DNA of 64,000 nucleotides, from the NCBI GenBank assembly GCA_028277765.1, contig JANQFQ010000051.1:115849-179848 (forward strand), given 5' to 3'. Below, piece after piece: positions 17,022 to 27,344 of this stretch. A model generated the notes under the pieces. It did not search any database, was not told the origin of the DNA, and worked only from the letters and a program-made list of their open reading frames with translations. Positions within the stretch are counted from its first letter, which is position 1, and each line of letters begins with the position of its first letter. The DNA is from Desulfobacterales bacterium (GTDB lineage Bacteria > Desulfobacterota > Desulfobacteria > Desulfobacterales > SURF-7). The position numbers and the translations under genes are program-made.

Positions 17022-17407
17022 TTTGTCACTTTATTAACTTAAATCATCCAATTCAACCTGTTATTTACCATGGGTATAAAAAAAACCTCTGACTTAAAAC
17101 CCTCATTTGTTGAAAAACAAATAGTCTGTTTCATGATAACCTCCTTCCGTCTTTGCAAATAATATCTGAACAAAGCGATACATCTACTTAAAGCACTTTT
17201 CTCTAAAGTAATGTTGGGTTTCGCCTCGTCACCATTCATATCACACAAACACATAAATCGGAGATTGGGTTACGTTTTTCAATCCAACAAAAAATTTCGG
17301 CTCTACCCAACCGACTACTCCCACCACGGCCTCCCGCAAGCACAAGAGGTTCTTCGCCTTTAGGACGCTGAATCCTGTCTTCATCAACTTTAGGCACTTC
17401 TTTTTTA

Positions 17408-17490
17408 TGGTGGCCGGAGCGGGAGTTGAACCCGCACGCTTTCGCACAGAGGTCTGAGCTCTGCGTGTCTGCCTGTTCCACCATCCGGCC
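17408..17490 (-). tRNA. tRNA-Leu (anticodon CAG), class II long variable arm
   Basis: Hand fold: acceptor GGCCGGA/TCCGGCC, loop cuCAGac, long variable hairpin, T-arm GCGGG-TTCAACT-CCCGC, CCA encoded. Confidence 0.8.
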
Positions 17491-17503
17491 TTATCTTTAT
17501 CAT

Positions 17504-17592
17504 CTGGTGCGTCGGGATGGACTTGAACCATCAGAGCTACTATAGCACCGGATTTACAGTCCGACCCGCTACCAGTTACGGTTTACCGACGC
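17504..17592 (-). tRNA. tRNA-Tyr (GTA), long variable arm
   Basis: Anticodon loop cuGUAaa, variable hairpin, T-loop TTCAAGT, CCA encoded. Confidence 0.75.
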
Positions 17593-17743
17593 ACAATACT
17601 TAAAAATCCAAAGAACGAAATCCGAACAAATCAGAAATTCAAATGTTCAAATGATCAAAACCCTCATACAAATTAAAAAACTTATAATTAAAAAAATAGC
17701 TGCTCTAAAATATTAAACCATAAAGTTTTGAATTTAATATTTT

Positions 17744-17796
17744 GGTCATTCGTATTTGTTTCGGATTTCGTGCTTCGGATTTCGAATTTTTTCTAT
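17744..17796. repeat. 48-bp repeat copy C (reverse orientation) of the AAATCCGAAGCACGAAATTCGAAATCCGAAAC...ATGACC family
   Basis: Reverse complement matches 19749-19795 and 36327-36372. Forms an inverted pair with the 19749 copy around a 16-tRNA block. Confidence 0.6.
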
Positions 17797-17863
17797 CATA
17801 ATCTAGTCCCCTTTCTAAGATAACTAAAGTTGAATATCCTGAACCATTATGTAAGCTGACGAT

Positions 17864-17937
17864 GGTGGCCCCTGTGAGAATCGAACTCACTTCATGAGAA
17901 TGAAAGTCTCATATCTTAACCAGTAGACGAAGGGGCC
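17864..17937 (-). tRNA. tRNA-Glu (TTC)
   Basis: Acceptor GGCCCCT, conserved CCTTCGTCTA, loop cuUUCau, CCA encoded. Confidence 0.75.
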
Positions 17938-18046
17938 ATACCAGTATTACTTAATTTAATCTCATATGTGCCGAAGATACATAAGCTAATAAGGACTTAA
18001 AATTGTCAGCATACCACAACTTTAGGCACTTAAGGCACTGTTTTTA

Positions 18047-18124
18047 TGGTAGGGGAGCCGGGATTCGAACCCGGAAATTACACTGGGCTTAAACCAGCAG
18101 CATGTGCCGTTCTGCTACTCCCCC
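18047..18124 (-). tRNA. Atypical tRNA, Leu-type anticodon TAA but class-I-like (7-nt variable loop, G13.A22 mismatch)
   Basis: Canonical T-arm CCGGG-TTCGAAT-CCCGG and acceptor. Best anticodon fold gives loop uuUAAgc. No long variable arm. Confidence 0.5.
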
Positions 18125-18135
18125 ATGCTTTTACC

Positions 18136-18212
18136 TGGAGAGCCTGGTGGGACTCGAACCCACATAAAACGATGTTGCAAACCGTCCCCTAACCAATTCG
18201 GGTCACAGGCTC
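18136..18212 (-). tRNA. tRNA-Cys (GCA)
   Basis: Loop uuGCAac, acceptor GAGCCUG/CAGGCUC, CCA encoded. Confidence 0.7.
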
Positions 18213-18291
18213 TGGTGCGGGCACCCGGAGTCGAACCGGGAAAACACATCGGGTTTGAGCCGACGGCATATGCCTATTCTGCCATGCCCGC
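18213..18291 (-). tRNA. Atypical tRNA, anticodon CAA (Leu-type) with short variable loop and 3-bp D-stem
   Basis: Acceptor GCGGGCA/UGCCCGC, loop cuCAAac, T-arm CCCGG-TTCGACT-CCGGG. Resembles the 18047 copy. Confidence 0.5.
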
Positions 18292-18292
18292 A

Positions 18293-18371
18293 TGGTGCCG
18301 GTGGTGGGAGTCGAACCCACAGATTTCACGGGATCTTAACCCGCAGCATATTCCAGTTCTGCTACACCGGC
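18293..18371 (-). tRNA. Atypical tRNA paralogous to 18047..18124 (anticodon loop uuaagau; AAG or shifted)
   Basis: Acceptor GCCGGUG/CACCGGC, D-arm GCAG-aacuggaauau-GCUGC, T-arm GUGGG-TTCGACT-CCCAC. Anticodon assignment uncertain. Confidence 0.45.
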
Positions 18372-18380
18372 TCTTTTTTA

Positions 18381-18457
18381 TGGCGCCCTGTACGGGATTT
18401 GAACCCGTGATACCAGATCGACAATCTAGCGTGATCGCCTGACTTCACTAACAGGGC
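18381..18457 (-). tRNA. tRNA-Asp (GTC)
   Basis: Loop uuGUCga, acceptor GCCCUGU/ACAGGGC, CCA encoded. Confidence 0.75.
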
Positions 18458-18467
18458 ATATTTCTCA

Positions 18468-18543
18468 TGGCAGGGGCGGAAGGATTCGAACCTTCAATTT
18501 ACGGCGTCAAAGGCCGCTGTGTTGCCAGTTTCACCACACCCCT
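18468..18543 (-). tRNA. tRNA-Gln (TTG)
   Basis: Loop cuUUGac, T-arm GAAGG-TTCGAAT-CCTTC, CCA encoded. Confidence 0.7.
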
Positions 18544-18656
18544 TTTTAAAAGCAGTTATAAGTTACAAGTGCCTTAAGTTAATGTATCGCTTCGCTCTGT
18601 CATCTTTAAACATACAAATTGTTAGAATTCATTCACTTAAGGCACTGCCTTTTACC

Positions 18657-18731
18657 TGGAGCGAGTAACCGGAATCGAACCGGTGTTTCAAGCTTGGAAG
18701 GCTTGCACTCTACCTGTTGAGTTATACTCGC
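18657..18731 (-). tRNA. tRNA-Gly (TCC)
   Basis: Loop cuUCCaa, acceptor GCGAGUA/UACUCGC. Confidence 0.75.
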
Positions 18732-18732
18732 T

Positions 18733-18806
18733 TGGAGCGAATGGCGGGAATTGAACCCGCGTTTCAACCATGGCAAGGTTGTGTTCTCCCCCTGAACTAC
18801 ATTCGC
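18733..18806 (-). tRNA. tRNA-Gly (GCC)
   Basis: Loop uuGCCau, acceptor GCGAAUG/CAUUCGC. Confidence 0.75.
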
Positions 18807-18807
18807 A

Positions 18808-18884
18808 TGGTGGAACGGATTGGAATTGAACCAATGACGCTTAGGGCTTCAACCTAACGCTCTACCAGCTTGAGCTACCGTTCC
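18808..18884 (-). tRNA. tRNA-Phe (GAA)
   Basis: Loop uuGAAgc, canonical D-arm AGCUCAAGCUGGUAGAGC. Confidence 0.8.
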
Positions 18885-18920
18885 ACAATCTTATATTTTT
18901 ACCATTGGCATAAGTTTCGT

Positions 18921-18955
18921 TTGAATAGTAAACTACACTATTCAACTCAGCTTTA
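18921..18955. promoter_or_regulatory. Palindrome TTGAATAGT-N7-ACTATTCAA followed by CTCAGCTTTAT, copy 1 of 2 (abuts the tRNA-Val 3' end)
   Basis: 9-bp perfect inverted repeat. The same ~35-bp sequence recurs at 33384-33419 directly in front of the rtcR start codon. Confidence 0.5.
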
Positions 18956-19032
18956 TGGTAGGACGAGCGGGATTCGAACCCGCATCCTTCTGCTTGTAAG
19001 GCAGATGCTCATCGCAATTGAGCTATCGTCCT
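18956..19032 (-). tRNA. tRNA-Val (TAC)
   Basis: Loop cuUACaa, T-arm GCGGG-TTCGAAT-CCCGC, CCA encoded. Confidence 0.75.
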
Positions 19033-19075
19033 GTGTTTTACTTTTATCTCCTTCATCATTGTATTACTCTAAAAA

Positions 19076-19181
19076 ATGGCCTGCCATACGTAGCTCGTTG
19101 CTATTTTGCCCTTAGCCCTCCTTCGCTAAAGCTATGGAGGGCACCATCCTTCTTCATCGCTCTGCTCTGAGCGAAGGATGG
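19076..19181. repeat. tRNA-array structured repeat (TASR) copy a: three-hairpin ~105-bp element abutting the tRNA 3' CCA
   Basis: Consensus ATGGCCAGCCAT...GCCCTCC-gtcgctaaagctat-GGAGGGC...CCATCCTTC-n-GAAGGATGG. Six copies at 19076, 20751, 20961, 21420, 21581 and 21822. Confidence 0.65.
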
Positions 19182-19258
19182 TGGAGGCACCGGTAGGATT
19201 TGAACCCACAACCAACTGCTTACAAGGCAGCTGCTCTTGTCCGTTGAGCTATGGTGCC
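19182..19258 (-). tRNA. tRNA-Thr (TGT)
   Basis: Loop cuUGUaa; CCA encoded and followed by a second CCA belonging to the repeat. Confidence 0.7.
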
Positions 19259-19297
19259 TTTCTTCTTTTTTATCTTTTACCCATCCAATTTTTCTTT

Positions 19298-19369
19298 TGG
19301 CACACCGGTAAGGAATCGAACCCTAGCCTACTGGTTTGGAGCCAGCCTGGTCACCATGACCTCCGGTGC
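19298..19369 (-). tRNA. tRNA-Trp-like (CCA) with aberrant D-arm (3-nt D-loop)
   Basis: Loop cuCCAaa, acceptor GCACCGG/CCGGUGU with G.U pairs, T-arm UAGGG-TTCGATT-CCUUA. D-arm collapses to GGUCA-ugg-UGACC. Confidence 0.5.
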
Positions 19370-19475
19370 GCATTTCATTACTTCTTTCCTGATGTTGTGC
19401 CTATAAAATGGCAGCGCTGAAAGCGCACCACAACTTAAGGCACTTGTAACTTATAACTTAAGCCACTTTATTATC

Positions 19476-19550
19476 TGGTCGGAGAGGAGGGACTTGAACC
19501 CCCAACTACGTGGCCCCAAACCACGCCGTCTCCCAATTGACTCACTCTCC
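19476..19550 (-). tRNA. tRNA-Pro (TGG)
   Basis: Starts CGGAGAG, loop uuUGGgg, CCA encoded. Confidence 0.7.
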
Positions 19551-19589
19551 GATTTTTCTATGAACATAAAATATGCTCCTGTTTATACA

Positions 19590-19667
19590 TGGGGTGTCGG
19601 AGGGGATTCGAACCCCCAACTACCTGAGCCACAATCAGGCGCTCTCCCCGTTGAGTCTACCGACACC
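19590..19667 (-). tRNA. tRNA-His (GTG) with genomically encoded G-1
   Basis: Loop uuGUGgc; extra 5' G opposite discriminator C; CCA encoded. Confidence 0.8.
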
Positions 19668-19748
19668 ATAAAAATGACAATACGCTTTCTTTTTTAGTTT
19701 CTAAGAAGTCACTCCTTTGCGTTAAAATATCTTGCTACCATTCTTGTT

Positions 19749-19795
19749 TAAAATCCGAAGCACGAAATTCGAAATCCGAAACAATATCAAATGAC
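19749..19795. repeat. 48-bp repeat copy A (forward) AAATCCGAAGCACGAAATTCGAAATCCGAAACAATATCAAATGACC
   Basis: Near-identical to 36327-36372 and reverse-complementary to 17744-17796. Confidence 0.6.
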
Positions 19796-19962
19796 CGAAA
19801 TACAAATTTCCGAAACACAAAAACATTTTGTTTTATAAAATCCAATGTTTTGAAAGTTTTAAAATTCGATATTCGGATTTAAAATTATCGTCATTAACTG
19901 TTCCCATAAATTACCTGCTAAATACCTTTCCTTATAAACGAGACTTTTTACAGTTTTGGTTT

Positions 19963-20038
19963 TGGCTGTGAGGGTCGGATTCGAACCGACGATTTCCTGA
20001 TTAACAGTCAGGCTCCTTGCCAGCTAGGATACCTCACA
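19963..20038 (-). tRNA. tRNA-Asn (GTT)
   Basis: Loop cuGUUaa, D-arm UCCU-agcuggca-AGGA, CCA encoded. Confidence 0.7.
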
Positions 20039-20122
20039 GCATGTTATCCTTTACAGCATTGCCCCAGCCCGCTGCCGCGATGTGTTCATCGCGGCAGCTT
20101 GATACTTTGAGCAATATACGGC

Positions 20123-20629
20123 TTAATAGATGCCTGCTTTTACAAGCAGATCATAAACGCCGATACTGTCGAGATGCTTCTTAATGAACTCCATAACTGT
20201 CGGCTGATAAGGCACAAAGTTTCTCTTATTAAAAAACATCTTTGCTTCCCTTAGGGTCCTGTCACCTTTTTTGTTATTGCAATCCACGCAGGAAGTTACA
20301 GTGTTTTCAAAAGTATTCTTACCTCCTCGTGACTGCGGAAAAACATGATCAATGTTCAGATTTTTTTTGGTTCCGCAGTAAACACATTTGAATACATCCC
20401 GAACCATCACGTTTTTTTTGGACCATGCCACAGCCTTTCGATAAATCTGTCTGACCAGATAAATCAGACGGAGAATCAACGGCACAACAATCTCTTCTGT
20501 TGCGGTTCTTACAATCATTTCAGAATACTTCTCCACGGTCACCTTTCCCTTGGCAACCAGCTTTAAAGCCCGTCGCACGGAAATGCTGTTAATGTAAGAA
20601 TAGTCCTGGTTTAAAAGTATTACTCTCAT
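20123..20629 (-). CDS. HNH endonuclease embedded in the tRNA array
   Basis: CVYCGTKKNLNIDHVFPQSRGG...N..VTSCVDCNNKKG HNH/zinc-finger motif; 168 aa. Confidence 0.75.
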   Translation of the reverse strand: MRVILLNQDYSYINSISVRRALKLVAKGKVTVEKYSEMIVRTATEEIVVPLILRLIYLVRQIYRKAVAWSKKNVMVRDVFKCVYCGTKKNLNIDHVFPQSRGGKNTFENTVTSCVDCNNKKGDRTLREAKMFFNKRNFVPYQPTVMEFIKKHLDSIGVYDLLVKAGIY

Positions 20630-20642
20630 GATCCACCGCCTT

Positions 20643-20717
20643 TGGCGCGCCTGGCAGGAATCGAACCCGCATATCAGAGCTTAGAAGGCTCCTGCTATTC
20701 CGTTTAGCTACAGGCGC
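20643..20717 (-). tRNA. tRNA-Arg (TCT)
   Basis: Loop cuUCUaa, acceptor GCGCCUG/CAGGCGC, CCA encoded. Confidence 0.75.
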
Positions 20718-20750
20718 TTGCCCATTATAACCTGCTTCTCCTTTCATTCT

Positions 20751-20855
20751 TAATGGTTTGCCCTCCGTAGCTCGATGTCTTTGATCCTTTTGCCCTCCGC
20801 CGCTAAAGCTATGGAGGGCACCATCCTTCTTCATCGCTCTGCTCTGAGCGAAGGA
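20751..20855. repeat. TASR repeat copy b
   Basis: Near-identical to copy a (..gccctccgccgctaaagctatggagggcaccatccttcttcatcgctctgctctgagcgaaggatgg). Confidence 0.65.
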
Positions 20856-20931
20856 TGGTGGAGGCGACAGGAATCGAACCCGCACGATACTGGATGCAAA
20901 CCAGCTGCTCTCCCTATTGAGCTACGCCCCC
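20856..20931 (-). tRNA. tRNA-Ala (TGC)
   Basis: Loop uuUGCau, and G3.U70 Ala identity pair present in acceptor GGGGGCG/CGCCUCC. Confidence 0.75.
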
Positions 20932-20960
20932 ATTTTCATTTCACTTAATCCTATCAATTT

Positions 20961-21037
20961 TAATGGCCTGCCATCCGTAGCTCGTTGCTATTGAGCCCTT
21001 AGCCCTCCTTCTTCGTCGCTTTACTCCGAGCGAAGGA
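20961..21037. repeat. TASR repeat copy c (middle hairpin deleted)
   Basis: atggcctgccatccgtagctcgttgc...ccctccttcttcgtcgctttactccgagcgaaggatgg. Confidence 0.6.
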
Positions 21038-21115
21038 TGGTGAGTGTGGAGGGACTCGAACCCTCAACTTACAGATTAAAAGCCTGTTACGCTGATCCAG
21101 TTGCGTCACACACTC
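21038..21115 (-). tRNA. tRNA-Lys (TTT)
   Basis: Loop cuUUUaa, acceptor GAGUGUG/CACACUC, CCA encoded. Confidence 0.7.
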
Positions 21116-21148
21116 ACATGTTAAACATCCTTTCCTCTATTTGTTTTC

Positions 21149-21224
21149 TGGTAGCGGCGGCCGGATTTGAACCGGCGCTGCACTGGATATGAACCAGTTG
21201 CTCTGCCTATTGAGCTACGCCGCA
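21149..21224 (-). tRNA. tRNA-Met/Ile2 type (CAT) with U1.U72 terminal mismatch
   Basis: Loop uuCAUau, T-arm GCCGG-TTCAAAT-CCGGC. The 1-72 mismatch is initiator-like but the anticodon stem lacks the three G-C pairs. Confidence 0.6.
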
Positions 21225-21231
21225 ACAAAAT

Positions 21232-21306
21232 TGGTAGCGATACCTGGAATCGAACCAGGGTTGCTCGATTATCGGTCGAGTGTTCTGCCTGCTGAACTAT
21301 ATCGCC
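21232..21306 (-). tRNA. tRNA-Ile (GAT), unusual C33
   Basis: Loop ccGAUaa, acceptor GGCGAUA/UAUCGCU, CCA encoded. Confidence 0.65.
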
Positions 21307-21319
21307 CCGATTTATATTC

Positions 21320-21398
21320 TGGCACCCCCGGGAAGATTCGAACTCCCGCAAACCCGGCTTCGAAGGCCGGCGCTCTGGATCCGCTGAGCTACGGGGGC
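21320..21398 (-). tRNA. tRNA-Arg (TCG)
   Basis: Loop cuUCGaa, acceptor GCCCCCG/CGGGGGU, CCA encoded. Confidence 0.6.
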
Positions 21399-21419
21399 AT
21401 ATGTCATCAAAACTTTCTT

Positions 21420-21493
21420 TAATTTCTTTGCCCTCCGTTGCTAAAGCTATGGAGGGCACCATCCTTCTCTGTCGCGCTGCTCCGAGCGAAGGA
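21420..21493. repeat. TASR repeat copy d (5' part missing)
   Basis: ..gccctccgttgctaaagctatggagggcaccatccttctctgtcgcgctgctccgagcgaaggatgg. Confidence 0.6.
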
Positions 21494-21569
21494 TGGTGGA
21501 CCCGGAAGGCATCGAACCTCCATAATACCGGTTATGAGCCGGCTGCTCTGCCGATTAAGCTACGGGTCC
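21494..21569 (-). tRNA. tRNA-Met (CAT), elongator-type
   Basis: Loop cuCAUaa, acceptor GGACCCG/CGGGUCC fully paired, CCA encoded. Confidence 0.7.
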
Positions 21570-21580
21570 AATTGCTTCTC

Positions 21581-21690
21581 ACGCCATATGGCCAGCCATC
21601 CGTAGCTCGTTGCCATTGAGCCCTTAGCCCTCCGCCGTTAAAGCTATGGAGGGCACCATCCTTCTCCGTCGTATTGCTCCGAGCGAAGGA
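21581..21690. repeat. TASR repeat copy e
   Basis: atggccagccatccgtagctcgttgccattgagcccttagccctccgccgttaaagctatggagggcaccatccttctccgtcgtattgctccgagcgaaggatgg. Confidence 0.65.
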
Positions 21691-21773
21691 TGGTGAGAGG
21701 GGGATTCGAACCCCCAAGGCTGTTACGCCCCACAGTTTAGCAGTCTGCTGCCATACCGTTCGGCCATCTCACC
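21691..21773 (-). tRNA. tRNA-Ser (GCT), class II, CCA not encoded
   Basis: Acceptor GGUGAGA/UCUCACC, loop cuGCUaa, long variable arm, T-arm GGGGG-TTCGAAT-CCCCC. Confidence 0.65.
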
Positions 21774-21821
21774 ATGTTTTCAATTTCGGTCTATGTATTA
21801 CCGTTTGCATTACCTCCTTTT

Positions 21822-21926
21822 TTATGGCCAGCCATCCGTAGCTCGGTGCATTTGATCCTTTTGCCCTCCGTCGCTAAAGCTATGGACGGCGCCATCCTTC
21901 TTCGTCGACTTACTCCGAGCGAAGGA
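21822..21926. repeat. TASR repeat copy f
   Basis: ttatggccagccatccgtagctcggtgc...gccctccgtcgctaaagctatggacggcgccatccttcttcgtcgacttactccgagcgaaggatgg. Confidence 0.65.
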
Positions 21927-22019
21927 TGGCGGAGGGACAGAGACTCGAACTCTGACGCGCCTTTTCAGGCGTTACTGGTTTTCAAGACCAGGCCCCGCCC
22001 CGCTGGGGTCAACCCCTCC
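21927..22019 (-). tRNA. tRNA-Ser (TGA), class II, 93 nt with irregular D-arm
   Basis: Anticodon arm CUGGU-cuUGAaa-ACCAG and T-arm CAGAG-TTCGAGT-CUCUG closely match enterobacterial tRNA-Ser(UGA). Long variable hairpin. TGA anticodon, not TCA, so not tRNA-Sec. Confidence 0.65.
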
Positions 22020-22230: not shown

Positions 22231-22310
22231 ATCTTCTTCAAAAAAAAACCCTTTCAGTATGCCTTGGGCAACCGAAAGGGTTTATAAAAAGCATACTGAT
22301 CGTAGTAATC
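22231..22310. ncRNA. Candidate structured RNA motif, copy 1 (pseudoknot-capable: CCCTTTC..AGTATGC..GAAAGGG..GCATACT plus CTGA..TCAG hairpin)
   Basis: Interleaved complementarity, conserved in a second copy at 22551-22640 with a compensatory T>C / A>G change in the second helix. No ORF. Confidence 0.4.
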
Positions 22311-22550
22311 AGGTCATATGTTCCTCCGTATCTATAATTGCACTGGAAAAATTTAAATTGGCACAGAGCAATGAGGACATACTCCTGCGTTTAGTATTAC
22401 TGCCCGGGTAATACCATAGGTCGCTCTTGGGTATATATTGTTTTAATTGCTGCATTTTTTCCTTTACCTTGTTTGTAATCGAAACTGTTTTTTCAATTAA
22501 ATCCCCATTGGGCAGGTTTGGAACCCGCCCCTACATTAATCTAAATATTT

Positions 22551-22640
22551 GTTCAACCAATTAAAAAGCCCCTTTCAGCATGCTGCCGAAAGGGGCTGTA
22601 AAATTCATGCTGAAATTTAGTATCAGTTCATGGGCCCCTC
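22551..22640. ncRNA. Candidate structured RNA motif, copy 2
   Basis: GCCCCTTTCAGCATGCTG..CCGAAAGGGGCTGTAAAATTCATGCTGAAATTTAGTATCAG aligns with copy 1 and keeps all three pairings. Confidence 0.4.
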
Positions 22641-22894
22641 CCGGCGTGATATTCTGACATATGCCAGATGAATACCGTTATAAAACGGATTCAAGAGGGT
22701 GGCTTCGGATAGGCTAAAATCCAAAAGCCTTTTAATTTGTTTTAAACATAGTAACCAAATCATTTTTAAATTCCTTAGTAATTTTTAACCTAATTATACA
22801 CTCTCTTTCGCGCGAAGTCAACAGCCGATTTTTATCATTCTTGATTTAAAATCTCCTGAGAAGCCTATAAAACCTGTATTTCTTTTACAAATAA

Positions 22895-23413
22895 TCATAA
22901 TGAAATTTTTAGGCCAAACTTTTCTTTTATTGTCAGCAACGCTTCTGCATTCCCTTTTGCATCATCTACAGGATAATGCGTATGTTTGGTTTTCCTTAGA
23001 TGTTTAAAATTCTTAAACATATCTTTTACAATACCTTTATATAAAGATCCTAAGTTCGTTGAACTAAATCCAAAGGGATTCTTTCCTGTAAAATGATGAA
23101 AATACCAGTTAATAAATTGCCAATCAAAACCATTGTTATCAGAGATAAACATTGGCTGGCTTTTAGAGTGCGTTTTAATCCAGCTAGCAAAATTCATCAT
23201 GACCTCTTTTGGTTCATCAAACGCCAGTACTTCCTCCCGGCTAAAGCCACTCACTGCCAGTGCTTCAGGAATCCAGTTTTCTGAAATCGGCCGCATTTGC
23301 CCGTAAAAAGTTTTTTCAAGGCCCGGTTTTACGATAACCGCCCCAAAGCTGATCATCGAATAATCGTCAGGTATGGGACCATCAGATTCTATATCTACCA
23401 TTATATAACTCAT
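22895..23413 (-). CDS. DEDDh-family 3'-5' exonuclease (DnaQ/RNase T-like), single domain
   Basis: Exo I MVDIESDG, Exo II FISDNNGFDW, Exo III HxxxxD as HTHYPVDDA; 172 aa. Confidence 0.75.
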   Translation of the reverse strand: MSYIMVDIESDGPIPDDYSMISFGAVIVKPGLEKTFYGQMRPISENWIPEALAVSGFSREEVLAFDEPKEVMMNFASWIKTHSKSQPMFISDNNGFDWQFINWYFHHFTGKNPFGFSSTNLGSLYKGIVKDMFKNFKHLRKTKHTHYPVDDAKGNAEALLTIKEKFGLKISL

Positions 23414-23427
23414 TTATAACCTCCAGA

Positions 23428-23511
23428 GGAGATGGTGGGCACAGCCCACCCTACAAATCAACCGATCTATAGCTTTAACAAAACGTAGGGCGGGCTGTGC
23501 CCACCATCTCC
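23428..23511. repeat. Long perfect palindrome R1, copy 1 (27-bp arms GGAGATGGTGGGCACAGCCCACCCTAC, ~30-nt loop)
   Basis: Intercistronic between the exonuclease and HEAT genes. Second copy at 28213-28293. Confidence 0.7.
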
Positions 23512-23512
23512 T

Positions 23513-25165
23513 TTAAACCTTTTCCAGGTTAAATCTTATGCTTTTCACAATCCAGTCATCAATATATTTCCCAAATTTCAACAATGCATTTTCTATTCGC
23601 TTTTTCTGGTCCTGAGTCGGTTTTGTAAAGCTTCTATTAAACCCTGGCGGCCATTTTTCCAAATACATTACGGCTCTTTCTTTTACTATTGCATCAGCTG
23701 ATACAGCACCTTCAATCAAATAAGAAACACTGTCCCATTTTGAAAGATGCCTGATCACAAAAAGAATATTAAGCTTACTGTACTGTTTGTCAGTATTCTT
23801 AAATGCTCTCCAAAGCTCATCTGCATCATATATGTATTTTAACGTACTTAAAATCATTGCTGCTTCCCGTGAAATACCCGGGGTGTCTTCAACGATTTTT
23901 CGGGAAAAAAGCTCCGCATATTCTTTGGGGCTTAATTTGCCCACAGCACGAATCGCGGCTTTTCTAATTTTCGCAAGTCGATGTGTAACAGCACCAACAA
24001 TTAAATCCGCATCATCACTTTTGCCTGTTTCACCTAAACCGCAAATAGCCCCCTGCAGTTTTTCTTTTTTTTCCTGTTTAATGAATTTGCGATAAATTTC
24101 AGCAAAATCTATTTCTTTCTTTTTGGCCAGATAAAATCTGGCAAACTCCCTGATCGATTTATGAGAATCGAGCAGGGAGTCATACAGTTTATCTTCTGCC
24201 TGATCAGGAAACCTTTCAATTATGACCGATAATGCCTCTCTGCGCACAGGCATAAAGCTGTTTGAGAGCATTTTTTTAAGGCACTTTGAAATATAAATTT
24301 CATCATAAAGCGCTCTAATTTTTCGAGCACATTTTATCCTGATAACACAATCATGATCTGCCAGCCCAATGTCCAGGGCTTCATTTTCTATACCTGTATT
24401 AACATTAAGAACCAATTGAAAACAGCTCCTCCTTGCTTTCAGGTCGATTAAAAACAAGCCGTTTTTCAAAGCATCATATGAATGCTCACTGGTTAATAAA
24501 GCGGTTATTTTTTCAACCGTCTCTTTATGATCATGTCGCCTGCAGTCTAAAAGACTGTTGATAATAGCCATGTTTGACACAAAATGTTCTATATAATCCT
24601 CGTCAATTCGGCTCTTAATGCTCCTTAAAGCTATTTTATGAATTTCCCTCACCCAGTCATTTAACCTGATGAGAATAAACGGCAATTCCTTTCCAGATTT
24701 TATTTTTCTAAGTTTCTTTAGTGCTGATTCACGTATATATCCATTACTGTGAAATGTTGTTAATGCAAGAACGGCAAAAGATTCATCGTTTTTCCCTTTA
24801 AAATGCCCCACATCTGCAGGGACCAAATTCCATTGCCCATAACTGCTCATCGTGTAATACGGTGATCTTTCACGCACTTGCAAATCAAGCCAACCCAGCT
24901 CAGACACTGGAATCATTTTTAAAAGTGTTTCAAGGACACTTGATGCAGCTGTCGCAACATCCAGATGTTTTGAATATGCAAAAGGCAAAATATCCGGGAT
25001 TACCGCCGGTTCCATGCGAGAGCCGATTTGGATGATATGGTCGGCAATCCTGCTTGAATCTTCAAAAAGTTTATTAAGCTGTCCCCCAGAATCATATAAT
25101 TCATTTATCAAGCTCCTGGTCACTTCAGAAACTTTGCGTGAAAATGTATGGGTACTCTGTTTCAT
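23513..25165 (-). CDS. HEAT/armadillo-repeat protein
   Basis: Repeated amphipathic helix pairs (..VRREALSVIIE.., ..AKIRKAAIRAVGKL..) over 550 aa. All-alpha by composition. Confidence 0.55.
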   Translation of the reverse strand: MKQSTHTFSRKVSEVTRSLINELYDSGGQLNKLFEDSSRIADHIIQIGSRMEPAVIPDILPFAYSKHLDVATAASSVLETLLKMIPVSELGWLDLQVRERSPYYTMSSYGQWNLVPADVGHFKGKNDESFAVLALTTFHSNGYIRESALKKLRKIKSGKELPFILIRLNDWVREIHKIALRSIKSRIDEDYIEHFVSNMAIINSLLDCRRHDHKETVEKITALLTSEHSYDALKNGLFLIDLKARRSCFQLVLNVNTGIENEALDIGLADHDCVIRIKCARKIRALYDEIYISKCLKKMLSNSFMPVRREALSVIIERFPDQAEDKLYDSLLDSHKSIREFARFYLAKKKEIDFAEIYRKFIKQEKKEKLQGAICGLGETGKSDDADLIVGAVTHRLAKIRKAAIRAVGKLSPKEYAELFSRKIVEDTPGISREAAMILSTLKYIYDADELWRAFKNTDKQYSKLNILFVIRHLSKWDSVSYLIEGAVSADAIVKERAVMYLEKWPPGFNRSFTKPTQDQKKRIENALLKFGKYIDDWIVKSIRFNLEKV

Positions 25166-25179
25166 TTTTTTAATTTCGC

Positions 25180-25250
25180 ATAAGTAGGTTAGGTTGAGCC
25201 GGTTTGCCCATGTTGGGTTAAAAACCGAAACCCAACCTACAAAAATTTAG
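25180..25250. repeat. R2 hairpin element, copy 1 (GTAGGTTG..GTTGGGTT-loop-AACCCAACCTAC)
   Basis: Second copy at 28362-28428; both intercistronic in the minus-strand operon. Confidence 0.55.
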
Positions 25251-25282
25251 CGTTCAATCCTTTGCAATCCCATAGACCACAG

Positions 25283-27145
25283 TTAACAATGCTTAATCAA
25301 ATCAATAATCGTGGTTTTATCAAGCATCTCTGGTGACAAGTCAATGTGATCACCGTCAGGTTTTTCAGCAACCACGGTTGCCCCTGCTATACTCAACATT
25401 TCTCTAAAATCTAGAGAATTCACCATACTGCCAACCAAATATTTTCTTGCATACTTTGATTGCTCGTTCTTTGCAGATGTAATGGAATTACCAATGCTGA
25501 CGTTTGCAAAGTACACCCGGTTCTCTCCATCAATATTTACGATCAATCCTAAGATGTTCTGCTTTTTAGTAATATTTATATTAGCACTCGCAATAAGATT
25601 GTTCACATCGATCATATAATTTTTTTTAAACTTATTTGGTTTTTCATGTGCAGCCATAATCTTGCACTCGACTTCATCACCTTTTTGGAAATTATAGTAA
25701 TTCACCATTAATATCCTTGCTTCCTGGTATCCCTTTTTGATGTAAAAAAGCTCAGATGCTCCTCGCGGTGCAGGCGCGTCCGTAATATCCCCGGAGAACA
25801 GAACACTTCGGTCATCTGACCGATAAGCCTCATCCCATCCTATCTTGCCGGATTCACCAATAACAGATAAGTCCAAATCTACCTGCTTATTGGTATTTGT
25901 CCAATGAATACCCACAATCAAATCTTCCGGCACTGAGATATAACTGCCTGTTGGGAGATTTCCGGTAAACTGCTTTTCCGTTGCTGGTAAAGCATAATAA
26001 ACGTTTGATGGAATATAAAACGTCTTTTGATTAACATTCTTCTGGATATCACCGACTATTGAAGTAACAACTATATCCAGCGCTTCCCGGGTCGTTTCAT
26101 TAAGGCATTCATGCCACTCAAATTCTGTTGCCCAGCCGCGGCCGTTTCGAATTTTGTAAACAATTGATCCTTCAGGTTGAAGACGATGCTTGAGGGCATA
26201 TGCCAGGCGAATTTTCCGAAAGATACTTGCTTTTTCAATCCTTTCTCCTAATTCATCCAAATTTAATGTTCCGTATTTTATTTGAGACGTTATGCTGTTC
26301 AAATAATCTTCCGGTAATGGAACGTGTAATTTGTCTGCTTTTTTCCGTAATTGATTAAAAAATGTCTTATTTTGCGAAATAGACTTCATGGCTAAAAATA
26401 ATGGTTTAAACCGAAAGAAAATAGAAGCCAGATCGTCTGGCGCATCTTTAATCAACATATCCAGGAATTTTCCATTTGCTTCCTTTATCTTCTCGATCAA
26501 ATAATCACTTTTTATAATTAATGATTCGTCTGTCAGCTTGCTAATCAAATGACGCAAAAACTCAACCGGATCAGAAGGCACAAGGCCATAAAGGTCATAA
26601 AGCAATGCCTTCAGCTCTCGATTGCCTATCTCATGGGCAAAATCACTGTCATAGTTATTGGCTTTTACAATGGTCATAATATCGTCCAATGTTTCTTGCG
26701 CAAGAGCGATTCCTGACCCTAAGTTTATAATTCTGTCAAGGATCTCCTGTGCATCCATCGCCTTAATAATAATTAACGGGACGCTGTCTTTAATAACAGG
26801 CAGTTCCAAAACCTCACTTGGAATATAAACCGCATCTTCCCGATAAATACCAAGCTCCTTGTATCCATACGTGGTTATGTAATGAATGATTTGCTGAATC
26901 ACTAAAGATTCCATTGAAGCATTCTGGACGACTTCCCAGGACTTATGAAAGGCAGCATTTGCTTTTTCACCGGAAATACCTACAACACTTTCAATAACAT
27001 CCAGCAAATCATTATTCGGCCATATGGCTTCATCAAGCAGATAACCGTTTTTAATTGTCCGCTCAAGAACAGACTGAGGTATATTTTTTTTGTTTTTGTT
27101 CTTAACTTGAATAGCATTAAACAATCTCAATGTTGCAGTTTTCAT
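25283..27145 (-). CDS. Large hypothetical protein (620 aa; N-terminal alpha-helical ~350 aa, C-terminal beta-rich domain)
   Basis: Long ORF with AAGGAGA 9 nt upstream of the ATG. No motif I can name; no MIDAS/vWA motif and no TROVE hallmark seen by eye. Confidence 0.6.
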   Translation of the reverse strand: MKTATLRLFNAIQVKNKNKKNIPQSVLERTIKNGYLLDEAIWPNNDLLDVIESVVGISGEKANAAFHKSWEVVQNASMESLVIQQIIHYITTYGYKELGIYREDAVYIPSEVLELPVIKDSVPLIIIKAMDAQEILDRIINLGSGIALAQETLDDIMTIVKANNYDSDFAHEIGNRELKALLYDLYGLVPSDPVEFLRHLISKLTDESLIIKSDYLIEKIKEANGKFLDMLIKDAPDDLASIFFRFKPLFLAMKSISQNKTFFNQLRKKADKLHVPLPEDYLNSITSQIKYGTLNLDELGERIEKASIFRKIRLAYALKHRLQPEGSIVYKIRNGRGWATEFEWHECLNETTREALDIVVTSIVGDIQKNVNQKTFYIPSNVYYALPATEKQFTGNLPTGSYISVPEDLIVGIHWTNTNKQVDLDLSVIGESGKIGWDEAYRSDDRSVLFSGDITDAPAPRGASELFYIKKGYQEARILMVNYYNFQKGDEVECKIMAAHEKPNKFKKNYMIDVNNLIASANINITKKQNILGLIVNIDGENRVYFANVSIGNSITSAKNEQSKYARKYLVGSMVNSLDFREMLSIAGATVVAEKPDGDHIDLSPEMLDKTTIIDLIKHC

Positions 27146-27163
27146 CGTAATCTCCTTTTAAAT

Positions 27164-27217: not shown

Positions 27218-27227
27218 TTCAATATGT

Positions 27228-27340: not shown

Positions 27341-27344
27341 ATAT

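Follow-up and report, generated by a model that had tools for sequence, protein, structure and literature searches.

A 27-gene tRNA array behind the rtc RNA-repair genes of a Desulfobacterales bacterium may be a reserve for translational stress

Introduction

Why would a Desulfobacterales bacterium keep tRNA genes for all 20 amino acids packed together near genes of RNA repair, and when would these tRNAs be made? Long tRNA arrays (L-arrays, tRNA array units) are known to spread horizontally (PMC8421152, PMC4758250). The otherwise silent L-array of Anabaena can be induced with translation inhibitors and shares its regulation with rtcB and the HNH gene (PMC8421152, PMC10272220); 23 of its 26 tRNAs are aminoacylated in vivo, and the array helps survival (PMC8421152). 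[quoted passage not shown] Furthermore, RtcR responds to damaged tRNAs (PMC7790460, PMC10159003), and genes of translation stress are controlled by ribosome-mediated attenuators (PMC4191407, PMC10314930). Here, an array within a 64-kb stretch of DNA (the window) was analyzed together with related loci.

Results

The tRNA array is complete and structurally intact

ARAGORN detected exactly 27 tRNA genes on the minus strand within 4.6 kb (5.9 genes per kb), with 26 different anticodons and all 20 amino acids; this is the same set, anticodon by anticodon, as in the original prediction.

17408..22019, minus strand: tRNA array with HNH gene (ARAGORN; Rfam RF00005 / RF01852; encoded CCA)
17297..17314, minus strand: terminator-like hairpin and T run, from a consensus scan only, ~95 nt past the last tRNA (Leu-CAG)

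The hairpin possibly marks the operon end. The order of transcription is Ser-UGA, Ser-GCU, Met, Arg-UCG, Ile-GAU, Met, Lys, Ala, Arg-UCU, the HNH gene, Asn, His, Pro, Trp, Thr, Val, Phe, Gly-GCC, Gly-UCC, Gln, Asp, Leu-AAG, Leu-CAA, Cys, Leu-UAA, Glu, Tyr and Leu-CAG. Failure of many candidates against covariance models, which would have spoken against the prediction, did not occur: 26 of the 27 genes scored 36-72 bits with the Rfam tRNA model RF00005 (threshold 29 bits), while Ser-UGA (21931-22019) scored 44.5 bits with the tRNA-Sec model RF01852 because of clan competition in Rfam. A Sec identity of this gene was rejected, as its anticodon loop CUUGAAA is that of Ser(UGA). CCA, predicted for most genes, is encoded by all 27 (the ARAGORN call of one gene runs 3 nt past it). 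Spacers of at most 14 nt separate the genes in 10 of 26 cases, among them spacers of 0, 1, 1 and 1 nt. Across orthologues 98.4% of the cloverleaf pair cells are paired and both sides have changed in 54 pairs; by this comparison the tRNA stems are kept by purifying selection. The array is thus real and structurally intact, and the window holds no further true tRNA gene (ARAGORN, Rfam).

Housekeeping tRNA-Leu of bacteria has a long variable arm. The three atypical Leu-anticodon genes that had been predicted were borne out as 78-79-nt cloverleaves with A73 and a variable loop of only 6-9 nt, lacking this arm.

18047..18124, minus strand: tRNA-Leu(UAA), 78 nt, class-I-like, A73 (ARAGORN; Rfam 49 bits)
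18213..18291, minus strand: tRNA-Leu(CAA), 79 nt, class-I-like, A73 (ARAGORN; Rfam 47 bits)
18293..18371, minus strand: tRNA-Leu(AAG), 79 nt, class-I-like, A73 (ARAGORN; Rfam 50 bits)
21320..21398, minus strand: tRNA-Arg, anticodon UCG (orthologous alignment)

Orthologues of tRNA-Leu(AAG) in four related loci (L008, L009, L010, L022) are 84-94% identical with their stems kept, and the short-Leu family contains 13 covarying pairs. The anticodon of tRNA-Arg is UCG here versus ACG in 17 relatives (A34 to T); pair 31-39 has changed in compensation from A-U to C-G, and the Asp anticodon also differs at its orthologous position (GUC to AUC).

An HNH gene and host repeats lie within the array

The HNH endonuclease gene predicted inside the array was confirmed by Pfam.

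20123..20629, minus strand: HNH nuclease gene (Pfam HNH_5 2e-15, HNH 1e-12)

It starts 14 nt past Arg-UCU and encodes a protein whose HNH core, at about residues 72-130, lies between a beta-rich N-terminal domain and a helical C-terminal part (AlphaFold pLDDT 88); solved structures, namely the Cas9/IscB HNH and the Gme nicking endonuclease 4h9d, match the core only. The protein is 83-89% identical in ~22 Desulfobacterales loci. Differences per codon position (1652/1185/6611) point to purifying selection, with synonymous sites close to saturation, and the G+C content of the gene (40%) is that of the host.

The dispersed repeats noticed before are real and fall into three families, one of which is a structured repeat of ~105 nt.

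21823..21929, minus strand: repeat copy 1, beginning at the discriminator and CCA of Ser-UGA
21587-21700: copy after Ser-GCU
21442-21498: copy after Met, truncated
20963-21044: copy after Lys, internal deletion
20764-20860: copy after Ala
19076-19183: copy after Thr

This repeat (fold z-score -2.9) forms a first hairpin in which N73-CCA-UCCUUC pairs with GAAGGAUGG-N', with a compensatory change at N73. It had no Rfam match and was found neither in any related locus nor elsewhere in the window. Repeats of the host genome have colonised the array, and together with the near-saturated HNH sites they indicate that the locus is old in this lineage.

The array shares ancestry with plasmid and phage arrays

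By sequence comparison the region belongs to the known, horizontally spread kind of long tRNA arrays. A search in relatives, plasmids and phages recovered the locus in relatives and HNH homologues in three further settings. Beside the characterised trn operon of Anabaena pCC7120delta the HNH gene is 32% identical to that of the window (E 5e-19) and lies 200 nt upstream of the operon's 24 tRNAs (ARAGORN); in Mycolicibacterium pTY66_01 it is 34% identical and stands mid-way in a 27-tRNA array. A tRNA lies within 2 kb in 38 of the 80 best IMG/VR relatives, and in 17 of these 80 the locus contains at least 10 tRNAs (0.36 tRNA per kb). Relatives with 53-58% identity lie on tRNA-rich, phage-like-looking contigs of 163 and 307 kb, the larger of which also encodes RtcB. 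Short tRNA-Leu genes of the tRNA-Leu(UAA) type recur in the Anabaena operon, pTY66_01 and phage clusters; the short type makes up 17 of 47 Leu genes across the compared array settings, and four of four in Anabaena. The array, the Anabaena trn operon, the mycobacterial plasmid arrays and the tRNA clusters of large phages share ancestry, as marked by their common HNH family and by short tRNA-Leu genes of class-I-like form. The array DNA itself matched plasmids and phages in single tRNAs only.

The array is linked to the rtc operon

The genes for ArfB and for the Rtc locus (RtcB, RtcA, RtcR) had been correctly identified, and the following features were assigned.

16599-17021: ArfB gene
22895..28184, minus strand: 5.3-kb insertion between rtcB and the array leader, window-specific
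28478..29683, minus strand: rtcB, RNA 3'-phosphate ligase (Pfam RtcB 5e-113)
30339..31358, minus strand: rtcA, RNA 3'-phosphate cyclase (Pfam RTC 5e-81)
31448..32554, minus strand: SPFH/Band-7 protein, first gene of the rtc operon, conserved in relatives (Pfam Band_7 3e-32)
33013..33076, minus strand: tRNA-like element in the rtc operon leader (RF00005 52 bits, model positions 5-66)
33203..33217, minus strand: sigma-54 promoter TGGCAC-N5-TTGC upstream of SPFH-rtcA-rtcB, read from sequence
33291..35021, plus strand: rtcR, sigma-54 activator with RtcR/CARF-type N-terminal domain (Pfam RtcR 2e-84, Sigma54_activat 1e-49)

The rtcR gene is divergent from the rtc operon, whose leader element lacks a full acceptor stem and CCA and is 88-89% conserved in four related loci (L002, L017, L018, L019).

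In ~17 related loci rtcB, or what remains of it, is immediately followed by the array on the same strand. In 12 of them SPFH-rtcA-rtcB is followed by leader and array, and five are decayed, with remnants of rtcR, SPFH and rtcB and only 1-2 tRNAs. The predicted theme of tRNA damage and repair is therefore much tighter than claimed as far as Rtc is concerned; ArfB is beside the array in no relative, and its part in the theme may be a coincidence. Downstream of the array the flank varies, with ArfB in the window, RlaP genes and secG in L008, phosphatidylserine decarboxylase in L004 and a solute-binding protein in L001.

The backbone gene order is the same among relatives with 0-15 tRNAs at the locus, showing that the array is dispensable there; these relatives, with HNH proteins 83-89% identical to that of the window, must encode their tRNAs elsewhere. 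In L008 a normal class-II tRNA-Leu(GAG) lies outside the array beside secG-tpiA-gap. Such frequent loss shows that selection on the array is weak or that its use is conditional. HNH gene and leader outlast rtcB and nearly all tRNAs in the decayed loci, a persistence as compatible with a selfish HNH module as with a function for the host.

Furthermore, rtcB and the array are 5.3 kb apart in the window, with unrelated genes in between. This insertion encodes a zf_Tbcl protein, a 125-aa protein, a 620-aa protein without family, a HEAT-repeat protein and a DEDD exonuclease, and includes a tRNA-like element (27228-27340); its proteins had no tblastn match in any related locus.

Two leader ORF/terminator units precede the array

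22793..22821, minus strand: sigma-70-type promoter, extended -10 (TTGACT-17-TATAAT, TG before; 11 of 12 consensus positions)
22623..22763, minus strand: leader ORF 1, 46 codons, Shine-Dalgarno, ending RREGPMN-UGA
22606..22615, minus strand: unit 1 segment 2 (TTTCAGCATG), 7 nt past the leader ORF 1 stop
22563..22597, minus strand: intrinsic terminator 1, 14-bp stem and U tract
22309..22455, minus strand: leader ORF 2, 48 codons, Shine-Dalgarno, ending TE[EG]HM[TFI]-UGA
22291..22299, minus strand: unit 2 segment 2 (TCAGTATGC), 9 nt past the stop, complementary to GCATACTGA of the terminator 2 3' arm
22240..22283, minus strand: intrinsic terminator 2, about 16-bp stem and U9

The promoter stands ahead of leader and array, and the strict pattern TTGACx-N17-(TG)TATrrT occurs 45-210 nt past the rtcB stop in 8 of 12 relatives. 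In total, 23 leader/terminator units were found across 13 loci, their leader ORFs being open throughout, with Shine-Dalgarno sequence, start and UGA stop. By nhmmer, unit 1 was detected in at least 15 relatives and unit 2 in 22 loci, both at no other site in the window. From the end of the last terminator to the first tRNA it is 1 nt (L025), 11 nt (L012) or 29 nt (L004). Among relatives leader ORF 1 ends R[RL]EGP-UGA. Leader ORF 2, which has 50 codons in relatives versus 48 in the window, is open in 10 of 10 distinct sequences (other frames contain 0-5 stops), while its differences per codon position (680/657/659) lack the bias seen in the HNH gene, indicating that translation itself is conserved and not the peptide.

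Segment 2 of unit 1 can pair either with the ORF end (CATG..CTGA), in a hairpin predicted by RNAalifold, or with the 3' arm of terminator 1 (CATGCTGAAA), and is therefore a candidate antiterminator strand. Its complementarity to the terminator is preserved; comparing the window with L009, one pair has changed on both sides. For unit 2 RNAalifold predicted a hairpin and a long helix joining AGGAGUAUGUCCUC to the ORF end. Pairing of segment 2 with the terminator holds in 94% of cells (10 sequences) versus 23-42% when slid; covariation was absent in these 10 sequences, so that the invariant pairing draws no support from it. In equilibrium folding with simulated ribosome footprints the terminators were not destabilised (probability ~0.96-0.98), except for one relative's terminator at one position (0.29), and any switch would therefore have to be kinetic. 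Pairing of an antiterminator with the 3' rather than the 5' arm of a terminator is an unusual and kinetically unfavourable design.

Discussion

What is the array for? We favour, with modest confidence, the explanation that it is a long-resident chromosomal appendage of rtc, a normally terminated tRNA reserve that is released by read-through under translational stress and deployed with Rtc repair. The array forms one co-oriented operon, behind an SPFH-rtcA-rtcB operon that is controlled by RtcR and sigma-54. Transcription would enter at the conserved sigma-70 promoter just past rtcB, with read-through from the rtc promoter as a probable second source, and RNA polymerase would then meet two tandem units, each with a strong intrinsic terminator behind a translated leader ORF that stops at UGA, so that the accessory tRNAs would normally stay silent. 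Ribosomes stalling at the ends of the leader ORFs, owing to translational stress, damaged or depleted tRNAs or slow termination, may free the segment past the stop codon to pair with the terminator 3' arm and thus allow read-through. We infer that the induced tRNAs would enter translation, the array supplying replacements while RtcA and RtcB simultaneously repair broken tRNAs. The co-transcribed HNH protein might maintain the module or spread it by homing, or have a stress role of its own.

An unlikely alternative is a selfish relic: a phage-derived tRNA cluster that came in together with a homing HNH endonuclease, is now silenced by the terminators and lasts solely through propagation by the HNH gene or its resistance to loss, the tRNAs having no role for the host. 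The abundance of this HNH family in phage tRNA clusters, the stepwise loss of tRNAs in relatives down to 0-2, the decayed loci that retain HNH gene and leader, the strong terminators and the poor transcription of L-arrays elsewhere (PMC8421152) would all fit. However, compensatory changes keep the tRNA stems across loci in which HNH synonymous sites are nearly saturated, promoter, translated leader ORFs and terminators are conserved as a unit beyond the needs of silencing, linkage to rtc is retained in many lineages, and in Anabaena the homologous array can be induced and helps the cells survive (PMC8421152).

It is less probable still that the tRNAs mainly act as decoys absorbing tRNA-cleaving toxins or, once cleaved, as ligands that keep RtcR active. 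Chargeable tRNAs are a better fit to the 20-amino-acid set, encoded CCA, A73 in the Leu genes and intact identity-bearing stems, and the Anabaena array tRNAs are aminoacylated (PMC8421152). Even so, the rtc operon to which the array is attached has an activator that senses damaged tRNAs (PMC7790460, PMC10159003) and a tRNA-like element in its leader; the Arg and Asp anticodons have changed at orthologous positions; and for Anabaena a sponge was proposed, as only array tRNAs were seen cleaved (PMC8421152).

The original prediction of a mobile array or phage counter-defence set holds for the accessory L-array kind, given the HNH family and the 0-15 tRNAs of relatives, but an array that lies in a bacterial chromosome is in itself no counter-defence set of a phage. 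That array and neighbours are a moving island, carrying anti-defence functions for an active element or prophage, is improbable: despite the horizontal spread of L-arrays (PMC8421152, PMC4758250), the changing downstream flank and the adjoining window-specific insertion with defence-like proteins, the window bears no mark of a prophage or mobile element. Among the ORFs examined none proved to be an integrase, a transposase or a phage structural gene, housekeeping genes (e.g. ribBA, glyA, fabF) flank the locus, the upstream partner rtc is constant among relatives, HNH G+C matches the host, repeats found host-wide have colonised the array, and plasmid or phage DNA matches are limited to single tRNAs. 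Least credible is a core operon holding the main or sole tRNA genes of the organism, for although the repertoire is near-minimal for decoding, covers all 20 amino acids and is the only one in the 64 kb, close relatives have 0-15 tRNAs at this locus, L008 has a class-II tRNA-Leu outside it, the long variable arm is missing from three of the four Leu genes, the array stands behind two strong terminators, and only two CAU-anticodon genes face three needed functions (initiator, elongator Met, Ile2).

Beyond the earlier reading, the analysis of the rtc-linked array adds the linkage in ~17 loci, dispensability despite selection on stems and HNH protein, and a promoter with two leader-ORF/terminator units. 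The position of the array behind the Rtc genes and the two conserved terminators suggest a reserve of tRNAs that may be switched on when translation is damaged.

A complete set of tRNA genes in a single orientation

The stretch between 17408 and 22019 had been predicted from the sequence to hold an array of 27 tRNA genes, and ARAGORN returned exactly the same list with the same anticodons. All 27 genes lie on the minus strand within 4612 nt (5.9 tRNAs per kb) and carry 26 different anticodons that cover the 20 amino acids. The Rfam tRNA model matched 26 of the 27 at 36-72 bits (threshold 29). Ser-UGA (21931-22019) scored 44.5 bits with the related tRNA-Sec model, whose hit hides that of the tRNA model through clan competition. 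The anticodon loop of this gene reads CUUGAAA and its identity is therefore Ser(UGA). CCA is encoded in all 27 genes, with one ARAGORN call running 3 nt past it. Spacers of 14 nt or less were found at 10 of 26 positions, and the gaps range from 0 to 296 nt overall, except for one of 604 nt that houses a nuclease gene. Orientation and spacing are compatible with co-transcription, as in the L-arrays, which are long, co-oriented, supernumerary and horizontally spread, often with an adjacent HNH homing-endonuclease gene (PMC8421152). In gene number and density the array also belongs to the tRNA array units, which comprise at least 20 tRNA genes at no fewer than 2 per kb (PMC4758250).

Related loci, designated L001, L002 and so on, were retrieved by searches with the HNH protein. 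About 22 of them, from Desulfobacterales genomes and from marine-sediment and worm-symbiont metagenomes, encode HNH proteins 83-89% identical to that of the window, and their layout was read by tblastn with window proteins and by Pfam wherever the upstream sequence sufficed. When the tRNAs of the window and the related loci were aligned by family, 98.4% of the cloverleaf pair cells were standard pairs and both sides had changed in 54 of 363 cloverleaf pairs. Paired stems together with two-sided changes indicate that the array tRNAs are not decaying pseudogenes. Most families are 83-97% identical among the related loci. Anticodon differences were seen in two of them: tRNA-Arg (21320-21398, minus strand) has U34 (UCG) in the window and A34 (ACG) in 17 relatives, with a compensatory change of the 31-39 pair, and tRNA-Asp reads AUC in two relatives (L008, 2787-2864; L009, 5269-5346) and GUC elsewhere.

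The embedded HNH gene is conserved and has homologues in other arrays

The HNH endonuclease gene placed inside the array by the original prediction was recovered as an ORF at 20123-20629 on the minus strand (Pfam HNH_5, 2e-15), which starts 14 nt past tRNA-Arg(UCU), with tRNA-Asn as the next gene. It encodes a beta-beta-alpha-Me nuclease that is a putative homing enzyme: the protein matches Pfam HNH/HNH_5, and D94, H95, N109, N118 and C82/C85/C114/C117 are invariant in the family alignment. In a structure search, the core of the AlphaFold model (pLDDT 88) resembled the HNH domains of Cas9 and IscB and the Geobacter nicking endonuclease 4h9d; outside this core the search gave nothing informative on the N-terminal beta-rich domain. 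Differences between loci numbered 1652, 1185 and 6611 at codon positions 1, 2 and 3, with 142 of 168 third positions variable, and the G+C content (40%) is in line with that of the host. Judged by this substitution pattern, the array module is old and selectively constrained. In one relative (L025) the HNH gene (1419-1922) contains an in-frame stop codon; seven called tRNAs and both leader units described below are present there.

On pCC7120delta (NC_003273), a linked homologue of the all8564 type lies 200 nt upstream of the trn operon of Anabaena (32% identity over residues 3-145, E 5e-19, tblastn), and the mid-array HNH protein of Mycolicibacterium pTY66_01 (27 tRNAs), also followed by tRNA-Asn, is 34% identical. 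Homologues further occur in large phages. Relatives with 53-58% identity are encoded on two contigs. One, phage-like and 163 kb long, has 24 tRNAs within 20 kb and also encodes an RNA ligase and PTH2; the other (L006), of 307 kb, encodes RtcB, RlaP, a CCA-adding enzyme and a multisubunit RNA polymerase. Of the best 80 IMG/VR relatives, 38 lie no more than 2 kb from a tRNA, and in 17 the locus contains at least 10 tRNAs. The density is 0.36 tRNA per kb; one 448-kb contig also encodes RtcB. The homologue on Acaryochloris pREB6 adjoins metG with no tRNA within 7 kb, so the HNH family is not always linked to arrays. RlaP-family nucleotidyltransferases are associated with RNA ligases; their genes were found directly downstream of the array in the relative L008 (4537-6283) and near the HNH/tRNA region of the 307-kb phage-like contig (15971-17032).

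A probably accessory array, joined to an rtc operon in related genomes

It had been noted that an Rtc RNA-repair locus lies beside the array, and this tie is kept in the relatives. The window encodes an RtcR with its N-terminal and sigma-54 AAA+ domains, a sigma-54 promoter, and rtcA and rtcB. Features of this region are:

33291-35021, plus strand: rtcR (Pfam)
33217-33203, minus strand: sigma-54 promoter TGGCAC-N5-TTGC of SPFH-rtcA-rtcB, read from the sequence
33013-33076, minus strand: tRNA-like element in the rtc leader (Rfam tRNA, 52 bits, model positions 5-66)
22895-28184, minus strand: window-only block of 5.3 kb between rtcB and the leader, without a match in any relative (tblastn)
27228-27340, minus strand: second tRNA-like gene (60 bits)

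In the relatives, the co-oriented order is SPFH, rtcA, rtcB, leader and tRNAs-HNH-tRNAs, with rtcR divergent in front. The full order from rtc through leader to array was found in 12 loci (L002, L004, L009, L011, L012, L017, L018, L019, L022, L023, L024 and L025), of which L002, L018 and L019 are near-identical to one another. Five decayed loci (L001 and L013-L016) contain remnants of rtcR, SPFH and rtcB, with one or two tRNAs (Met, Arg) beside an intact HNH gene. Counting L020, the decayed group carries 0-2 tRNAs and has retained leader units and an intact HNH gene. Proximity to RNA-processing and translation genes, rtcB among them, is a described property of L-arrays (PMC8421152). ArfB, encoded on the other flank, had been suggested to share a theme of tRNA damage and repair with the array; it had no tblastn match in any related locus and was discarded as a member of the conserved module.

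The backbone order in the relatives is Ser, Met, Arg, Ile, Met, Lys, Arg, HNH, Asn, His, Pro, Trp, Thr, Phe, Gly, Gly, Gln, Asp, Leu, ..., Tyr, Leu. Between 0 and 15 tRNAs were called at the locus, the 27 of the window being the fullest version seen, and L009 contains recognisable remnants of Ser genes. Decoding in relatives with 0-2 tRNAs at the locus must use tRNA genes elsewhere, and L008 has a normal 86-nt class-II tRNA-Leu(GAG) outside the array, beside secG-tpiA-gap. These comparisons are a strong argument for an accessory rather than a core array in this lineage, as had been proposed.

The further proposal of a mobile or phage-type array held in part. The array is of the tRNA array unit and L-array kind with an HNH gene common in phages, and its HNH family and short Leu genes are shared by several phyla and phages. 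The window flanks are ordinary chromosomal sequence (two-component regulators, ribBA, glyA, fabF and sugar-nucleotide genes), and no phage genes occur among the neighbours examined (rtc genes, ArfB, two-component regulators, ribBA, glyA, fabF). The suggested look for the array in related strains, plasmids or phages gave the same locus in related genomes and HNH homologues in plasmid and phage arrays. At the DNA level, comparison of the whole array with plasmids and phages gave single-tRNA matches and no shared array. Within Desulfobacterales, the locus looks old and vertically kept.

The tRNA-like element at 33013-33076 has an incomplete acceptor stem and no CCA. Its place is within the SPFH-rtcA-rtcB leader of about 650 nt, some 125 nt past the sigma-54 promoter, and it is 88-89% conserved in L002, L017, L018 and L019. 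It is reminiscent of the tRNA-like Y RNAs of Salmonella rsr-yrlBA-rtcBA, here without a Ro gene. The 22895-28184 block encodes a zf_Tbcl protein, a 125-aa protein, a 620-aa protein with no Pfam family and a weak partial match to the RING_SCO0854 model, a HEAT-repeat protein (PADLOC HEAT-ARM_XIII, 2e-9) and a DEDD exonuclease (PADLOC 'Effector exonuclease', 7e-40), and may be a defence-type cassette. The tRNA-like gene at 27228-27340, absent from all relatives, has perfect acceptor, D and T arms, a 44-nt insert in place of the anticodon loop and no CCA; the motif GGCACAgGgaGTTCCTtAA is present in the insert and on both flanks of the gene.

A promoter and two tandem leader/terminator units precede the array

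Between the last upstream gene and the first tRNA gene of the window, the following elements were located:

22821-22793, minus strand: promoter TTGACT-17-TATAAT with TG extension (11 of 12 consensus positions)
22597-22563, minus strand: strong intrinsic terminator 1, U8-9 tract
22283-22240, minus strand: strong intrinsic terminator 2, U8-9 tract

The promoter recurs in the relatives 45-210 nt past the rtcB stop. Each of the two units (unit 1 and unit 2) consists of a Shine-Dalgarno sequence, a start codon and an ORF of 46-50 codons ending in UGA, followed by a segment of 9-10 nt and an intrinsic terminator. The segment lies 7-12 nt past the leader stop and reads TTTCAGCATG in unit 1 and TCAGTATGC in unit 2. 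A pattern search detected 23 such units in 13 loci, all ending in UGA, and a profile search recovered unit 2 from 22 loci, decayed ones among them, with no other match in the 64-kb window. The distance from the end of the last terminator to the first tRNA is 1, 11 and 29 nt in L025, L012 and L004, respectively, and all transcription of these arrays must therefore cross the terminators. In the window, no promoter-like site was found between terminator 2 and the first tRNA (22020-22240, minus strand).

The leader ORFs are open in every sequence, with stops in both other frames, and their substitutions show no codon-position bias (680/657/659). As far as these patterns tell, the leader ORFs are translated and the peptide is not what is conserved; only the C-termini recur (..R[RL]EGP in unit 1, ..TE[EG]HM-X in unit 2). 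Conserved small proteins or toxins were dismissed on the lack of codon-position bias, unlike in the HNH gene. Two-codon mini-ORFs (ATG-NNC-TGA behind GGAGG) were rejected as well, as long ORFs equipped with a Shine-Dalgarno sequence span the region in every relative; the third-position C of ATG-NNC-TGA is constant because it pairs with the segment just past the stop.

RNAalifold predicted for unit 2 a covarying hairpin within the ORF and a long helix in which AGGAGUAUGUCCUC pairs with the ORF end, and for unit 1 a hairpin in which the ORF end (CATG..CTGA) pairs with the downstream segment. In both units, this segment is also complementary to the 3' arm of the terminator: in unit 2, 94% of cells are paired versus 23-42% with the partner slid, with no covariation, and in unit 1 there is one two-sided change, between the window and L009. 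With a ribosome footprint placed at every codon, equilibrium folding kept the terminator dominant and gave no switch. The order of elements, a promoter followed by a translatable leader ORF and an intrinsic terminator ahead of genes that have no later promoter, is that of an attenuator, and we take a ribosome-dependent one as the most likely reading of the leaders, at slightly better than even odds. The prediction is graded rather than firm because folding revealed no switch and pairing with the 3' arm would be an unusual design.

No T-box was matched in 17000-23500, even at E up to 1, and the leaders had no match to any other Rfam family. The 20-nt signature of the Anabaena TrcR box had no match. 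The 21-nt signature had one, at 22738-22758 (plus strand), which lies antisense within leader ORF 1 near the array promoter, is not conserved and is probably a coincidence (chance expectation 0.11 per window). Boxes of the Anabaena TrcR type are thus absent save for this single match.

Short-arm tRNA-Leu genes are shared with phage and plasmid arrays

Three Leu genes in the array had been called atypical. They proved to be genuine cloverleaves: Leu-UAA, Leu-CAA and Leu-AAG are 78-79 nt long, with A73, a 3-bp D stem, a large D loop and a variable loop of 6-9 nt, and their standard pairs are kept across the relatives, with 13 covarying pairs in the family. The variable arm of Leu-CAG (83 nt) is shortened too. 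In phage and plasmid clusters linked to the HNH family, 17 of 47 Leu genes are 74-79 nt long and devoid of the long variable arm, mostly with A73 and CCA (loci L029, L069, L087, L088, L096, L102 and L111); the Ser and Tyr genes of these arrays keep their long arms. The Anabaena trn operon has four Leu genes, all of the short type, and 23 of its 26 tRNAs are aminoacylated in vivo (PMC8421152). Short-arm tRNA-Leu thus appears to be a common mark of HNH-linked arrays in phages, plasmids and chromosomes that had not been recognised before. E. coli LeuRS depends on A73 and on tertiary features of the D and T loops and can dispense with the long arm, so charging of short Leu species is plausible.

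Repeat families within the array spacers

The dispersed repeats that had been noticed in the array were confirmed as three families:

21823-21929, 21587-21700, 21442-21498, 20963-21044, 20764-20860 and 19076-19183, minus strand: six copies of a 105-nt element
17186-19467, 30310-30347 and 36574-36608: AGTGCCTTAAGT repeat family
17604-17782, 19751-19772 and 36327-36348: AT-rich TCGGATTTCGTGCTTCGGATTT repeat family

Each copy of the 105-nt element starts exactly at the discriminator base and CCA of a tRNA (Ser, Ser, Met, Lys, Ala and Thr). In its first hairpin, N73-CCA-UCCUUC pairs with GAAGGAUGG-N', which sequesters N73-CCA, and a compensatory change is found where the discriminator is G instead of A. 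The element has no Rfam match and is absent from the rest of the window and from all relatives, which excludes it as a general trait of such arrays; it has the look of a small insertion element specific to the lineage, or of a processing signal for tRNA 3' ends. The AGTGCCTTAAGT repeat occurs 12 times (0.2 expected) and TCGGATTTCGTGCTTCGGATTT four times. Both also lie outside the array and are host-wide dispersed families that colonised its spacers.

Discussion

The locus comprises an intact, selectively maintained and dispensable tRNA operon with a co-transcribed HNH gene, which is always attached to an RtcR/sigma-54 rtc operon and preceded by a conserved promoter and two translated-leader/terminator units. 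The L-array class, its HNH partner and the functional tie to rtcB have been published already. What appears to be new is the constant physical fusion of the array with an RtcR-controlled rtc operon in Desulfobacterales, and likewise its gating by conserved leader-ORF/terminator units instead of a TrcR-type repressor. No published description of the rtc fusion, the leader gate or the short-Leu hallmark was found in the literature searched.

A close likeness is to the trn operon of Anabaena (Nostoc) sp. PCC 7120 (PMC8421152, PMC10272220), which is also a single co-oriented operon of about 25 tRNAs with short spacers, an adjacent co-oriented HNH gene of the same family (all8564), short class-I-like tRNA-Leu genes, a link to rtcB and to genes of translation and RNA processing, and what may be a similarly patchy distribution among genomes. 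The two differ in gene order and in the HNH gene, which is mid-array in the window and upstream of the array in Anabaena. Moreover, the window array is chromosomal and joined to the RtcR/sigma-54 rtc operon, whereas that of Anabaena is plasmid-borne with rtcB elsewhere, and leader ORFs with intrinsic terminators occupy the promoter region in place of the TrcR direct-repeat operators. The window array meets the formal definition of the tRNA array units of Acidithiobacillus and mycobacterial plasmids (PMC4758250, PMC5966550), and Mycolicibacterium pTY66_01 shares with it 27 tRNAs, a homologous mid-array HNH gene followed by tRNA-Asn and 78-nt Leu genes. However, these units are sited on plasmids or integrative conjugative elements, their remaining gene order differs, and no adjoining rtc operon or leader/terminator unit was reported or seen. 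Large-phage tRNA clusters (T4 SegB, PMC2330249; S-CRM01, GodonK and jumbo phages) also contain nuclease genes among the tRNAs, commonly of the HNH family, although T4 SegB is a GIY-YIG enzyme; some phage-like contigs encode RtcB, RNA ligase, a CCA-adding enzyme or peptidyl-tRNA hydrolase and have short tRNA-Leu. In contrast to these clusters, the window array has no phage genes around it and occupies a conserved bacterial chromosomal context.

The region upstream of the array resembles amino-acid leaders (PMC1183508) and the attenuators of bmrCD (PMC4191407) and msrD (PMC10314930) in the succession of promoter, Shine-Dalgarno leader ORF, terminator and genes, and in a stop-adjacent segment that can pair alternatively with the ORF end or the terminator. 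Unlike them, it has two tandem units, tRNAs as the regulated genes and a candidate antiterminator on the 3' arm, and its leader ORFs of about 45-50 codons contain no run of regulatory codons and are conserved in the last residues only (..REGP, ..TEEHM-X). The rtc operon shares with Salmonella and E. coli rsr-yrlBA-rtcBA (PMC7790460, PMC10159003) a divergent rtcR, a sigma-54 promoter, rtcA, rtcB and a tRNA-like RNA element, but lacks the Ro gene (rsr), begins with SPFH and has a tRNA array with its own promoter attached downstream.

RtcR is activated by damaged or nicked tRNAs (PMC7790460, PMC10159003). In Anabaena, the array is silent and is induced together with rtcB and the HNH gene by translation inhibitors, with improved survival (PMC8421152, PMC10272220), and leader-ORF attenuators turn on translation-stress genes upon ribosome stalling (PMC4191407, PMC10314930). 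The two terminators that separate the promoter from the array would fit a silent state here too. On this basis, we propose that the array would be a reserve tRNA set that is terminated during normal growth. With a ribosome held at the ORF end, the segment would become available as a competitor for the terminator arm, and ribosome stalling would in this way release transcription of the array. Repair by RtcA/RtcB and replacement from the array may then act together, and the HNH protein may maintain or spread the module.

The main rival explanation is a selfish, silenced relic, which would account for the frequent loss of tRNAs in the relatives and for the survival of HNH gene and leader in decayed loci. 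Against it stand the compensatory maintenance of the tRNA stems and the conservation of the regulatory unit.

The proposal of a reserve tRNA set can be taken further, in a form that we regard as possible but rather unlikely: rtc operon, both leader units and array might constitute a single 'tRNA damage response' that has two sensors, RtcR for nicked tRNAs and the tandem leader ORFs for ribosomes stalled at the end of translation. Both together would release a complete replacement set. The leader of unit 1 ends in Gly-Pro-UGA, which is a poorly terminating context. The replacement tRNAs might be shaped to escape tRNA-cleaving toxins, for example through the short-arm Leu species and the A34 to U change in tRNA-Arg, and the co-transcribed, strongly conserved HNH protein might have been recruited to a host role and no longer be merely a homing enzyme.

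To our knowledge, the Anabaena array is the only one that has been characterised; it is plasmid-borne and repressor-controlled, and its tie to RtcB is one of co-regulation only. Here, many lineages have an array of this kind physically joined to the Rtc repair operon and gated by conserved leader-ORF/terminator units. Should the proposed model be wrong, the locus would still be a well-documented further case of a known class. The short-arm Leu hallmark, which extends from phages through cyanobacteria to Desulfobacterales, bears on recognition by LeuRS and possibly on the evasion of tRNA-cleaving toxins. The locus addresses the question of what purpose bacterial tRNA arrays serve, and it provides a concrete, testable model in which damaged tRNAs would be jointly repaired and replaced, with ribosome stalling as the trigger.
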